A stretch of DNA of 64,000 bases, taken from sequence record NC_014792.1. One strand, given 5' to 3'. The position numbers and the translations under genes are program-made. Of this stretch, positions 1,735-52,120 are shown piece after piece. Origin of the DNA: Escherichia phage vB_EcoM_VR7. The first letter of the stretch is position 1. Each line of letters opens with the position of its first letter. The notes under the pieces were generated by a model that was not told the origin of the DNA, searched no databases, and worked only from the letters and a program-made list of their open reading frames with translations.

Positions 1735-3309
1735 ATGGCAGGTTTTAATACAATACTAAATTTTCTTAAGCCTTGGGCTAAAGAAGATGAACAAGAATAT
1801 AAGCAACAAGAAAAAAATAATTTAGAGTCAATGACCGGGCCGAAGTTTGATGATGGGGCTCGCGAAATTGAGTCACAAGAACAAAACGTCCCGTATAATG
1901 CATTGATGCAACAGATGTTCGGGAGCAACGAACCTGAAGTAAAAAACACCAGGGAATTAATTGACACATACCGCAACCTACTAAATAATTATGAAGTTGA
2001 TAACGCGGTGCAAGAAATTGTGTCTGATGCTATCGTTTTTGAAGATGGTAAAGATGTCGTAGCTCTTAACCTTGATGCTACTGAATTTAGTCAGAAAATT
2101 AAAGACCGAATTCTCGAAGAATTCTCGGAAGTTAATAACCTCCTTAATTTCGAGCGTAAAGGTTCTGACCACTTTAAACGTTGGTATGTGGATTCTCGAA
2201 TTTTCTTCCACAAAATTATCAACCCTTCAAAACTTAAAGAAGGCGTTCAAGAACTTCGTCGCCTTGACCCAAGACAAATCCAGTTCATCCGTGAAATCGT
2301 TACACGCATGGAAAATGGTACGAAAATTGTTGACGGTTACAGAGAATATTTTGTATACGATACAGGTCATGAAAGTTATTGTGCCGATGGTCGTATATAT
2401 GAAGCGGGTACTAAAATAAAAATTCCTCGTGCGGCAATTGTATATGCACATTCCGGATTACTTGATTGTTGTGGTAAGAATATCATCGGATACCTGCAAC
2501 GAGCAATCAAACCTGCAAACCAATTAAAACTATTAGAAGATGCTTTAGTCATTTATCGTATAACTCGTGCGCCAGACCGCCGAGTCTTTTATATCGATAC
2601 TGGGAATATGCCGTCTCGCAAAGCAGCAGCACATATGCAACATATTATGAACACGATGAAAAACCGTGTCGTATATGATGCAACTACGGGTAAAATCAAA
2701 AACCAACAGCATAATATGTCAATGACAGAAGACTATTGGTTGCAACGTCGCGACGGTAAAGCAGTCACCGAAGTTGATACTCTCCCAGGTGCACAAGGCA
2801 TGTCGGATATGGATGATGTTCGCTGGTTTAAGAACAACCTATATCAGGCTCTCAGAATTCCATTATCTCGTATCCCTAATGACCAGAACAGTGGCGTTAT
2901 GTTTGATGCGGGGGCGACAATTACTCGCGATGAATTGAATTTCTCTAAATGGATTAGACAACTACAGAATAAATTTGAAGAAGTTTTCCTCGACCCGCTT
3001 AAAACCAACCTTATCCTGAAAAAAGTTATTTCAGAAGAGGAATGGGACAAGGAACTAAATAATATTAAAGTTACGTTCAACCGTGATAGCTATTTCACCG
3101 AAATGAAAGATGCAGAAATCATGGAACGCAGAATCAATATGCTAACGATGGCTGAACCGTTTATCGGTAAATATATTTCGCATCAAACTGCAATGAAGGA
3201 TTTCCTCCAGATGTCTGATGAAGAAATTAATCAAGAAGCTAAGCAAATTGAATTGGAGTCCAAAGAGGCTCGTTTCCAAAACCCTGAAGAAGAAGAAGAG
3301 GATTTCTAA
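1735..3309 (+). CDS. 20: Portal vertex protein gp20
   Basis: Full-length similarity to T4 gp20 ([56 protein letters not shown]); 524 aa. Confidence 0.97.
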
Positions 3310-11181: not shown

Positions 11182-11210
11182 CATTATACCACAATTTTAT
11201 TTGAAGCAAA
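11182..11210 (-). promoter_or_regulatory. MotA-dependent middle promoter for rnlB
   Basis: Minus strand reads TGCTTCA (MotA box), 12 nt, TATAAT. Confidence 0.6.
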
Positions 11211-49792: not shown

Positions 49793-49826
49793 TTGAAAAT
49801 AAAAAAGGGACCCGAAGGTCCCCTTA
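49793..49826 (-). terminator. Rho-independent terminator after gene 32
   Basis: gggaccc-gaa-ggtcccc with a T-run on the minus strand. Confidence 0.8.
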
Positions 49827-49828
49827 TA

Positions 49829-50740
49829 TTAAAGGCCAGCCAGAAGGTCGTCAAGACCATCATCAGAAGGCTCTGGAGTGCTTGGAGCAGTCGCAGTGCG
49901 TTCAGACTTAGCAGGTTTGTTGGAAGTGAAGTCTTCCATATCTTTATCAAAATCGTCCAGGTCAGCGCCCAGTTTATCAGCTTGTGCAGCAGCTTTAGAA
50001 GCAGCACCGCCGAGAGCAGCCGTACCCATTACTTTAGAGAATTTCTTCTGATTCTCTTCAAGGGATTTAAACACCAGCAATTCATTCAGGTCAGACATTT
50101 CGTCCCAAAGTTTTTTCTGGAACGCTTCATCATTGATGCCAGCGATTTCAGACTGGTTCATGAATTTGGAATCATCGTAGTTTTTATAACCGGAAACCAT
50201 TTTAGATTTCAGTACGAAGTTCGCACCTTCAAAAGGACAAGTTACATCAATAGCTGTTTCGCCCATGTCAACATCGACTTCAACCATCTGGTTGATTTTG
50301 TCCATGATTTTCTTACCGAAGCGGTATTTGAATACTTGACCTTCGTTAGACGGAACAGCAGGGTCTTTAATGACCAGGATGTTAGCCCAGTAAGAAGTAT
50401 TACGCTTCAGTTTACGATATTCGGATTCGTTTGTATTGTACAGGTCATTCTTATTCATGTACGCACACACAGGACAGTTTTCATAGTCGCCGTGAGTAGA
50501 AGTACAGTTTTCAATATACCATTGACCAGCATTTTTAAAGCCGTGGTTAACCAACTTAATGAACGGAGATGGATTTTCTTCATTCTTAGAAGGCAGGAAA
50601 CGAATAACCGCAGAGCCGACGCCATCAGTATCTTTCAGTTTCCATTCTTTTTTATCGTCAGAAGAGAAACCGGCACCACCTTTCAGAGCGTTCAGGGAAG
50701 CGGCGAGGTCAGCTGGGTTACGACGTTTAAACATAGACAT
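49829..50740 (-). CDS. 32: Single-stranded DNA-binding protein gp32
   Basis: Strong similarity to T4 gp32 ([78 protein letters not shown]); acidic C-terminus. Confidence 0.97.
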
Positions 50741-50921
50741 AGTGATTTCCTTAGATTATTTGATTTTAACAGTTGTTTTGATTACGTATTAATTATACTA
50801 CTTTTTATTTAAAGCGCATTTATCACGGTGACGTTTTAAATGATTTATAGATGTTTCATATCCACATAAATCACAAATGGCCCTTGGTAATTTTTTACCT
50901 TTAAACCCTTTGGGATGAATA

Positions 50922-51470
50922 TTATCTGGGTTTGAGTAACGGCGCTTTAGCAGAATCACTAAGAGTTTTTATCACTTCAATACCTCTGATATTATTTATT
51001 TTATCATCTTTTTCATAAAAGCGATTTAAGCCTTCAGAAATTGATTTCTTATGCTCCGTGCTTTTTGGAACATCCTTTTGTGCTTCCGAAATACATTGAT
51101 TTGTGTATATGGAATTTTTCATTCCATATCTTGGTGCGCGTTCACCGGCACCACCAAATGCACCATGAGCTGTTGCTTTATTAAAGAATAGCGGTGATTT
51201 TGGTATATTATAATGAGAGTGGTACCACTCTTCCTCGTCCAAAACATCTTCACAGACATCGAGTATTTTAACTGTCGGCTTTTCGAGTTGAATAGCTTCA
51301 AGAAAATCAGCTTGCTCACATGAGGACCAATATTCTCTTCTTGAAGTATATTTCAAATCAATTATAACACCATTTTCAAAAGCGCAATTATGCTTTGACC
51401 CAATGTAAAAATAAGGAGGTGTTTTATTTTTCAGACGAGTTTCAAATGTAAACCAATATACAACATTCAA
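50922..51470 (-). CDS. Putative GIY-YIG-type homing endonuclease (SegG-like position next to gene 32)
   Basis: N-terminal VVYWFTFETRLKNKTPPYFYIGSKHN resembles a degenerate GIY...YIG motif; sits between genes 59 and 32 where T4 has segG. Confidence 0.45.
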   Translation of the reverse strand: MNVVYWFTFETRLKNKTPPYFYIGSKHNCAFENGVIIDLKYTSRREYWSSCEQADFLEAIQLEKPTVKILDVCEDVLDEEEWYHSHYNIPKSPLFFNKATAHGAFGGAGERAPRYGMKNSIYTNQCISEAQKDVPKSTEHKKSISEGLNRFYEKDDKINNIRGIEVIKTLSDSAKAPLLKPR

Positions 51471-52120
51471 AACTTACACCCTTTAACAGTCTCGATGAAC
51501 AATTTACGAGCTTCAAGAGCATCTATATTTAAGATTTTCTTATAAGCATTTAGTTTGGTTGAATACTTATCCCAAACCAAATCGTTAGTCTGTTCATCAT
51601 GTTTATTTATTATATGCAAAAATGAGTCAAGCAAACAAAACGTTTCAAATGAGATAACATTCGATTGGAGAAGTTTGAAAATATAACTTGTGTTCACTTT
51701 AGTATTATACTCAAAAATCTCTTGAAGCGATTTGACTTCACTTTTCTTACTAAAGTAATAGATGTTCTTTATATCATCTTCGTATACTTGTTTAATTCTT
51801 TTAAGTCTGCCGATGTATTCCCTATAAAATATCAGAGCATCGGCATCACTTATATCACCTATCCATGCATCCTGGTTCGCGACCAGGTTTGACATGAATA
51901 TTAACGTTAATTCTTTGAGAGTGTACTTATCGCTAAGCTTTTCGAAAAAATACTTGTCACGACGTTTTTGATAAGCACTATCGGAGATTCGCATGGTCCA
52001 GTTATATTTGATAATATCATAACGACCCGAAAAATGCTGTTTGATGGATAAGTACAGTTGATATACTGATTTACCATTTATGTATCGGTTGTTATTTGGA
52101 GGCATGCGAATCGTAATCAT
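51467..52120 (-). CDS. 59: Helicase loader gp59
   Basis: Near-identical to T4 gp59 (GKSVY.LYL.IKQH..G.YD.IKYNW.MR.SD.AYQKRRDKYFF.KLS.KY.LKEL.LIF.SNLVANQDAWIGDISDADAL.FYREYIGRLK); 217 aa. Confidence 0.95.
   Translation of the reverse strand: MITIRMPPNNNRYINGKSVYQLYLSIKQHFSGRYDIIKYNWTMRISDSAYQKRRDKYFFEKLSDKYTLKELTLIFMSNLVANQDAWIGDISDADALIFYREYIGRLKRIKQVYEDDIKNIYYFSKKSEVKSLQEIFEYNTKVNTSYIFKLLQSNVISFETFCLLDSFLHIINKHDEQTNDLVWDKYSTKLNAYKKILNIDALEARKLFIETVKGCKF

Follow-up and report, generated by a model that had tools for sequence, protein, structure and literature searches.

A probable broken copy of a SegG-family homing endonuclease gene between genes 59 and 32 of Escherichia phage vB_EcoM_VR7

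Phage T4 carries the gene of the homing endonuclease SegG (gp32.1) between genes 59 and 32, at the 3' end of the former. According to PMC2330249 and PMC2988022, which cite Liu et al. (2003), SegG is an active GIY-YIG homing endonuclease which excludes gene 32 of phage T2. The operator of T4 gene 32 lies upstream of the gene and includes a pseudoknot that overlaps the segG stop codon (PMC535899), and segG itself contains the promoters from which gene 32 is transcribed (PMC2988022). For phage RB49, no pseudoknot has been reported (PMC535899). Here, we consider the same junction in Escherichia phage vB_EcoM_VR7 (sequence record NC_014792.1), of which a stretch of 64,000 nucleotides was analysed as a whole (the window). 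Between its genes 59 and 32, directly upstream of the latter, VR7 likely carries a broken copy of a homing endonuclease gene that is free-standing and belongs to the T4 SegG family.

The VR7 gene shares with T4 segG the insertion site, the orientation and the position at the 3' end of gene 59. However, the T4 start codon is an ATG adjacent to gene 59, whereas VR7 has a TTG that overlaps the gene 59 stop. The N-terminal ~113 amino acids (aa) of T4 SegG are 54 % identical to VR7 and contain the same invariant residues; in contrast, the C-terminal halves are unrelated, with NUMOD3-like repeats and a C2HC zinc knuckle in VR7 and a T4/SP18-type domain in T4, and only the VR7 allele is frameshifted. 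In both phages regulatory DNA of gene 32 overlaps the 3' end of the endonuclease gene, the pseudoknot and promoters in T4 (PMC535899, PMC2988022) and a putative middle promoter in VR7. The SegG protein of Shigella phage SP18/UPEC07 (212 aa) belongs to the same genus, Gaprivervirus, and occupies the same site; the first ~38 codons of its gene are nearly identical in DNA to the VR7 gene, but it has the T4-type C-terminal domain, and its ORF extends across the native promoter sequence. The same architecture at the same site, but intact, is found in the 223-aa allele of Escherichia virus TH15 (MT446392; 94 % identical in DNA) and in the metagenomic proteins P0001-P0011.

An earlier note on this DNA, made from the sequence alone, had placed a 182-aa open reading frame (ORF) between genes 59 and 32, where T4 has segG. 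This ORF is indeed present (50922..51470, minus strand, starting with the TTG mentioned above), its neighbours are identified by Pfam, and the site and the homology to T4 SegG agree with the proposed correspondence. The upstream neighbour is gene 59 (helicase loader, 217 aa; 51467..52120, minus strand; Pfam T4_Gp59_N/C, 1.9e-48 and 4e-39) and the downstream one gene 32 (single-stranded DNA-binding protein, 303 aa; 49829..50740, minus strand; Pfam gp32, 7.7e-51); the minus strand is the coding strand for every gene of the 59-32 part of the window. Residue for residue, the 182-aa sequence equals that of YP_004063938.1 (VR7 gp32.1, 'putative homing endonuclease'). A putative annotation as a homing endonuclease thus already exists, and the family, its location and the general logic are textbook T4 biology. 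What the present analysis adds is the diagnosis of a frameshift, the domain architecture, the reassignment of the presumed leader to a coding remnant plus promoter, and the absence of a T4-type pseudoknot.

The frameshift emerges from comparison with TH15, the closest record in the phage collection, which is 94.8 % identical across the region and has an uninterrupted 223-aa ORF in the same place. Alignment of TH15 with the window DNA contains a single indel, an extra A in the window's run at 50946..50948 (minus strand), where VR7 has AAA and the intact gene AA (GCTAAAGCG versus GCTAAGCG). Deleting this base restores a 223-aa protein with 11 differences from TH15. As it stands, the VR7 gene has no uninterrupted reading frame: its +1 insertion puts 48 codons out of frame. 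The deposited product comprises 175 native residues followed by seven aberrant ones (APLLKPR) and a stop. The out-of-frame remainder, 147 nucleotides at 50798..50944 (minus strand), represents the end of the intact allele from codon 176 to codon 223 and its stop (RRYSNPDNIHPKGFKGKKLPRAICDLCGYETSINHLKRHRDKCALNKK and stop codon), and is covered by a 53-aa ORF in another frame that overlaps the end of the 182-aa ORF (50798..50959, minus strand). With the native frame lost after codon 175, translation would yield a protein without the 48 C-terminal aa, to which the zinc knuckle belongs; such a product is most probably dead, or at least impaired in cutting at specific sites. The frameshift is the only lesion of the gene.

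Apart from this base, the gene appears well preserved. Compared with TH15, the ratio of non-synonymous to synonymous substitution rates (dN/dS) is 0.094 for the whole endonuclease gene, 0.07 for its first 110 codons and 0.044 for the out-of-frame tail; the flanking genes have values of 0.095 (gene 59) and 0.058 (gene 32). The synonymous rate itself (dS) is about 2-fold higher in the endonuclease gene (50798..51470) than in the flanking genes 59 and 32 (0.22 versus 0.12), and the gene has a GC content of 35 %, compared with a window mean of 41 %. Because the whole gene, including the part that is out of frame, still looks as if it were under purifying selection, the lesion would be either very recent or a sequencing error.

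In the latter case, an error of sequencing or assembly in the VR7 record, the phage would encode an intact and active 223-aa endonuclease. In favour of an error, just one base is added, within a run of A residues, and the tail differs from TH15 by five synonymous changes and one non-synonymous change. In the 90 %-identity cluster of the VR7 protein all nine other members have 223 aa, the gene is also intact in L007, a near-isogenic metagenome contig, and the 182-aa form, confined to the VR7 record, never turned up in metagenome assemblies. However, the A-run is only three bases long, and a low dN/dS, which in the tail rests on six substitutions, is equally expected from a very recent real mutation. 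We regard a sequencing error as a possibility to be taken seriously but as the less probable one, and lean moderately towards a real frameshift that leaves the enzyme non-functional or strongly impaired. T4 itself offers a partial parallel. The HNH enzyme I-TevIII is encoded in an intron and shortened by a deletion, whereas the VR7 gene is free-standing, of the GIY-YIG type and shifted by one nucleotide. According to PMC2790892, I-TevIII is a defunct truncated endonuclease that is kept in the genome; like the predicted VR7 product, it is without its C-terminal DNA-binding part.

It can also be imagined that the ribosome repairs the damage. A +1 ribosomal frameshift at CCC-AGA-UAA (50922..50930) would join the two frames (…KP to DNIHP…), restore the knuckle and keep the level of a toxic enzyme low; if true, it would amount to a translational throttle on a toxic selfish nuclease. 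A slip of tRNA-Pro from CCC to CCA before the stop would re-enter the native frame with only five residues changed, and the apparent purifying selection in the downstream frame would fit. However, the relatives need no such event and the lesion is unique to one record. Moreover, AGA accounts for 16 % of the arginine codons of the window and is not a hungry codon, the window contains no tRNA genes, and neither a stimulatory Shine-Dalgarno sequence nor a stimulatory structure accompanies the site. Recoding is therefore highly improbable, and a real, inactivating frameshift remains the favoured reading.

Codons 1-105 (51156..51470, minus strand) specify a SegG-type GIY-YIG catalytic domain with VVY3-5, Y22-I-G24-S-K26, Y47, S50, E80 and N97. 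T4 SegG matches residues 1-113 with an E-value of 3e-42 (the 54 % identity extending over 115 aa), and phrog_7504, the PHROG family of SegG, with 1.3e-48, although of the 210 profile positions the latter match covers only 1-114. Between TH15 and SP18, the domain shows 73 % protein identity, and an exhaustive profile search retrieves 228 clusters (at 50 % identity) that carry it. Among 49 diverse homologues, Y5, Y22, G24, Y47, S50, E80 and N97 are invariant, and V4, P19, I23, K26 (98 %) and F96 nearly so, followed by R12 (86 %); all of them are found in VR7. At position 55, T4 SegG has R and VR7 has D. The order and spacing of E80 and N97 fit the catalytic Glu and Asn of GIY-YIG enzymes (I-TevI E75 and N90), and we infer from these positions that they are the equivalent residues; P0050, which is collinear with Pfam SegE_GIY-YIG, supports this equivalence. 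Sub-threshold Pfam matches to SegE_GIY-YIG and GIY-YIG occur in 15/49 and 5/49 of the homologues, respectively. A structure model of the domain has a predicted local distance difference test score (pLDDT) of 93.4, and fold comparison gives figures of 6.4 for the I-TevI catalytic domain (76 residues aligned), 4.7 for PD-T4-3, 4.1 for T4 EndoII, 4.0 for the UvrC N-domain and 3.5 for R.Eco29kI. Two suppositions of the earlier note, a GIY-YIG-like N-terminus and a SegG-type endonuclease, are borne out by the VVY...YIG motif, whose Y5, Y22 and G24 are among the invariant residues, and by the SegG-family gene at the segG position. Its description of the gene as degenerate is wrong for the catalytic domain: the set of family-invariant residues is complete, and it follows from the dN/dS of the first 110 codons that this part has not decayed. 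The real lesion, the +1 frameshift that takes away the C-terminal 48 aa, had escaped the note.

A database search places the N-domain in two architectures, class A, which is that of VR7, and class B, that of T4 SegG and SP18. Class A comprises 11 proteins of 213-229 aa with 49-100 % identity to TH15. Its C-terminal half is unalignable with that of the T4 SegG type, so that collinearity with SegG does not extend over the full length. In VR7, a linker and NUMOD3-like repeats occupy approximately codons 113-175 (G118MKNS…ISEAQ, KSTEHKKSISEGL, …; 50946..51134, minus strand). When residues 108-182 of 11 homologues are made into a profile, it recovers the segments that Pfam assigns to NUMOD3 in relatives, with E-values of 1e-9 to 1e-4 in a set of 46 sequences, and Pfam NUMOD3 is found in 29/49 family members; it stays below threshold on the VR7 protein itself. 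Region 108-182 of class A thus behaves in these comparisons as NUMOD3-like repeats. Further downstream, and out of frame in VR7, lie the codons of a zinc knuckle, C199-x2-C202…H214-x3-C218 (50816..50875, minus strand). This C-x2-C-x11-12-H-x3-C motif is invariant in 11/11 full-length class A proteins and occurs in 25/49 of the diverse family members. With a full-length model, Foldseek finds the knuckle locally similar to UBZ/C2HC zinc fingers, although weakly (probability ~0.9, E ~1). The intact protein of 223 aa would therefore combine a divergent GIY-YIG N-domain, NUMOD3-like DNA-binding repeats and a C-terminal C2HC zinc knuckle.

The frameshift could be real and the 182-aa protein, with nuclease domain and NUMOD3-like repeats, nevertheless a working endonuclease, perhaps of relaxed specificity. 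Its catalytic domain is intact, 24/49 family members lack the knuckle motif, and I-TevI tolerates the loss of its zinc finger, with the control of cleavage distance altered. However, the knuckle is present in every homologue of the same architecture, and it constitutes the C-terminal module, usually the main DNA-binding site of GIY-YIG homing endonucleases. In addition, family members without a knuckle carry other C-terminal modules rather than nothing. A functional truncated enzyme is unlikely for these reasons, and loss or strong impairment of activity through the frameshift is still to be preferred.

The 3' end of the gene seems to have a second role. In T4, middle promoters have a MotA box (…TGCTTtA) that is followed, after 11-13 bp, by a -10 element of the form TAnnnT. 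A motif scan of VR7 identifies such an arrangement upstream of gene 32, GCTTTA (50810..50815) and TATAAT (50792..50797) separated by N12 (50792..50815, minus strand). As cGCTTTA-N12-TATAAT it conforms to the pattern of a T4-type MotA-dependent middle promoter, and we infer from the motif that it serves as the middle promoter of gene 32. GCTTTA belongs to the codons 3' of the last zinc-knuckle Cys (…TGC GCT TTA AAT AAA AAG TAG), and TATAAT follows directly after the stop. In the window, the scan for GCTTYA-N11-13-TATAAT returns 8 matches, compared with 0.16 expected, and 7/8 lie on the minus strand (at 11183, 18485, 36883, 50792, 51704, 52762 and 55942). The match upstream of gene 32 is conserved in all Gaprivervirus loci examined, i.e., SP18, UPEC07, TH15, L007, VR20 and VR25. 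In the insert-free phages VR20 and VR25, it is located within the last codons of gene 59. Because the putative middle promoter overlaps the last codons of the endonuclease gene, this 3' end would not be freely lost; it may be retained for the sake of the promoter of the essential gene 32. Another match, GCTTCA-N13-TATAAT, lies within gene 59 (51704..51728, minus strand), is also present in SP18, TH15, VR25 and L007, and is a candidate promoter for both the endonuclease gene and gene 32.

The late-promoter motif TATAAATA occurs 19 times in the window, where 4.8 copies would be expected; most of them lie below 16 kb on the plus strand, and none is near gene 32. A sigma-70 scan gave fewer promoter-like sites than shuffled sequences, and a terminator scan no terminator-like hairpin. 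In SP18, the SegG frame reads through MotA box, spacer and -10 element (…ATC GCT TCA ATC ACT TTG AAG TAT AAT TAA; L001 2162..2188 and L003 1253..1276), which creates a chimeric C-terminus. In L007, the middle-promoter motif occurs twice in tandem before gene 32 (3173..3196 and 3255..3278). The first copy is at the end of the endonuclease gene, the native one follows 82 bp further on, and endonuclease gene and gene 32 are separated by ~90 additional nucleotides. On the opposite strand of VR7, a 339-aa ORF (49793..50812, plus strand) runs antisense to the entire gene 32; it is probably spurious, a by-product of codon usage on the other strand.

The stretch between the stop of the 182-aa ORF and the gene 32 ATG had been taken in the earlier note for an AT-rich, structured leader of ~180 nucleotides that likely contains the translational operator. 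Its base composition is as described: the 181 nucleotides at 50741..50921 have 27.6 % GC, compared with 40.7 % for the window, which places them among the lowest 0.1 % of 181-nucleotide windows. However, most of this stretch is not leader. According to the TH15 alignment, 147 of the 181 nucleotides are the out-of-frame tail of the endonuclease gene, a conserved reading frame of the intact allele, and the true intergenic spacer, i.e., the 5' leader of gene 32, measures 57 nucleotides with 21 % GC (50741..50797, minus strand). Neither is the stretch notably structured. Folding of 50721..50840 is no better than that of shuffled sequences (z +0.31), and an Rfam scan of 50600..51600 yields chance sub-threshold matches only. 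From its sequence, the AT-rich stretch before gene 32 reads as a coding remnant plus a promoter and not as an RNA element.

The proposed operator is only partly recovered. Likeness to the T4 operator is confined to its unstructured half and, in VR7, to the last ~35 nucleotides before the ATG: CAACTGTTAA (50766..50775) and AAGGA (50748..50752) are collinear with that half, and downstream of the promoter the leader reads ACGUAAUCAAAACAACUGUUAAAAUCAAAUAAUCUAAGGAAAUCACUAUG. From CAACUGUUAA to the AUG there are 28 nucleotides in VR7 and 30 in T4, with AAGGAAAU in between. To this extent, VR7 resembles the T4/RB69 operator, which consists of a pseudoknot and a UUAAA/UAAA tract, in an A/U-rich unstructured tract and in the order and spacing of CAACUGUUAA, AAGGAAAU and AUG. 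It differs in having a single UUAAA, compared with several in T4, and in the lack of a pseudoknot, the place of which is taken by the promoter -10 element; a transcript from the middle promoter would start downstream of this position. No counterpart of the T4 stems GCUAUGA/UCAUAGC was found in the VR7 leader, while folding does recover this main stem in T4, where it overlaps the segG stop. A search for a hairpin or pseudoknot in the leader yields no more than local pairings of 4-5 A-U pairs, as in 4-bp hairpins (GUAU/AUAC, AUUA/UAAU) with loops too short for an H-type pseudoknot, and these were discarded. A 6-bp hairpin, CUUCAA/UUGAAG, which the DNA of the SP18 read-through can form, exists in the insert-free phages and SP18 and is disrupted in VR7 and TH15. 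In lacking a pseudoknot, VR7 resembles RB49 (PMC535899). In more distant phages (L009 3140..3184; L010 3120..3171), the endonuclease stop is 12-26 nucleotides from the gene 32 ATG and the last endonuclease codons themselves contain the UUAAA-rich gene 32 leader. As a whole, then, the picture of a degenerate but intact 182-aa GIY-YIG ORF followed by a structured leader with the operator can draw on the AT-richness, on the operator known upstream of gene 32 in T4 (PMC535899) and on the collinearity of CAACUGUUAA and the Shine-Dalgarno sequence. It is contradicted by the reading frame conserved in TH15, by the folding result, by the missing stems and by the catalytic residues, which are all conserved, and there is next to no chance that it is correct.

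The junctions of the insert are visible in comparison with relatives. VR20, VR25 and many other Gapriverviruses are insert-free, with genes 59 and 32 adjacent, so that the endonuclease gene is a presence/absence polymorphism. In VR7, the insert starts directly after GTTAAA (51482..51487), divergence from the insert-free phages beginning at 51481, and similarity to the empty site returns at CGCTT…GTATAAT. As a result of the insertion, the C-terminus of the gene 59 protein changes from …VKNCQITLQSL (222 aa, insert-free) to …VKGCKF (217 aa). Junction alignment with VR20 and VR25, and comparison with L003 1240..1268 and L005 1470..1500, indicates that the last four codons and the stop of gene 59 (51467..51481) come from the inserted cassette, which also supplies the TTG start of the endonuclease gene and the Shine-Dalgarno-like AAAGGGTG (51477..51484, minus strand), presumably functional, six nucleotides 5' of it. 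The insertion has thus rewritten the end of a protein that is essential for replication.

Class A homologues with as little as 49 % identity and differing downstream synteny are always found between genes 59 and 32, with a start that overlaps the gene 59 stop. On sequence grounds, this is the pattern of positions expected of a site-specific homing element. By analogy with T4 SegG, the intact enzyme would cleave the DNA of relatives without the insert, either close to the 59/32 junction or within gene 32; recombinational repair would then copy the endonuclease gene into the cleaved genome. In close relatives, the 59/32 site contains no insert, a T4-type SegG gene or a gene with a swapped DNA-binding module. 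L007 (ERZ13616301 NODE_4183) and VR7 agree to 98-100 % throughout gene 59, over endonuclease codons 1-~120 and again from gene 32 codon 8 on. Between these near-identical blocks, L007 2860..3360 and window positions ~50718..51110 share only 40-68 % identity. The exchanged block comprises the DNA-binding half, the promoter and leader, and gene 32 codons 1-7, and its left breakpoint lies just 3' of GGAATGAAAAATTCC. Gene 32 codons 5-7 (50720..50728) are hypervariable and follow the endonuclease allele, being KRR (AAACGTCGT) in VR7 and TH15, RRK in L007, and KRK in SP18, UPEC07, VR20 and VR25. For the class A enzyme, these codons could be a candidate target site or could confer immunity.

Several points weigh against the interpretation given here. 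Pfam GIY-YIG and NCBIfam are silent on the VR7 ORF, on TH15 and SP18, and on T4 SegG. Profile searches of PDB sequences with N-domain alignments of 18 and 49 sequences return nothing or chance matches, and Foldseek against the PDB gives no significant match for the N-domain model; with the full-length model, only zinc-finger-sized local matches appear, and I-TevI comes at rank 30. Among the 49 homologues, no conserved Arg equivalent to I-TevI R27 was located after YIG. Beyond the nuclease domain, no cleavage site is known for the class A architecture, the evidence for promoter function is the motif, the frameshift could be an error of the deposited sequence, and a truncated protein that keeps nuclease domain and NUMOD3 repeats might still cut DNA. 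Because Foldseek did not recover the I-TevI-type resemblance, the model-based case for a GIY-YIG fold is to be rated as moderate but coherent. The earlier note would have given up its proposal had no such fold been predicted; the prediction does favour it, at this moderate level.

Two features of the domain are unusual. The spacing from GIY to YIG is 16 residues instead of the usual 10-11, with a short helix inside, and after VVY…YIGSK there is a second GIY-YIG-like hairpin, G34-V-I-I…Y47-W-S-S50 (residues 3-50 in all; 51330..51462), which makes the assignment of the hairpin ambiguous; the other is the lack of an R27-like Arg. An hhalign comparison of the family profile with I-TevI, intended for mapping catalytic residues, aligned the second hairpin with a probability of 1 % and was not relied on. 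Both oddities, spacing with second hairpin and missing Arg, are common to T4 SegG, which is experimentally active, and for this reason they do not mark decay of the VR7 copy.

For the purposes of annotation, VR7 gp32.1 should be treated as a 223-aa endonuclease in a frameshifted copy. As seen at the 59/32 locus, Gaprivervirus is a genus without the T4-type gene 32 pseudoknot. More generally, the evolution of homing endonuclease genes can be followed within the small space of its 59/32 junction: at one site, one SegG-type nuclease domain is paired with at least two unrelated DNA-binding modules, and the regulatory DNA of an essential gene appears interleaved with the last codons of a selfish one.

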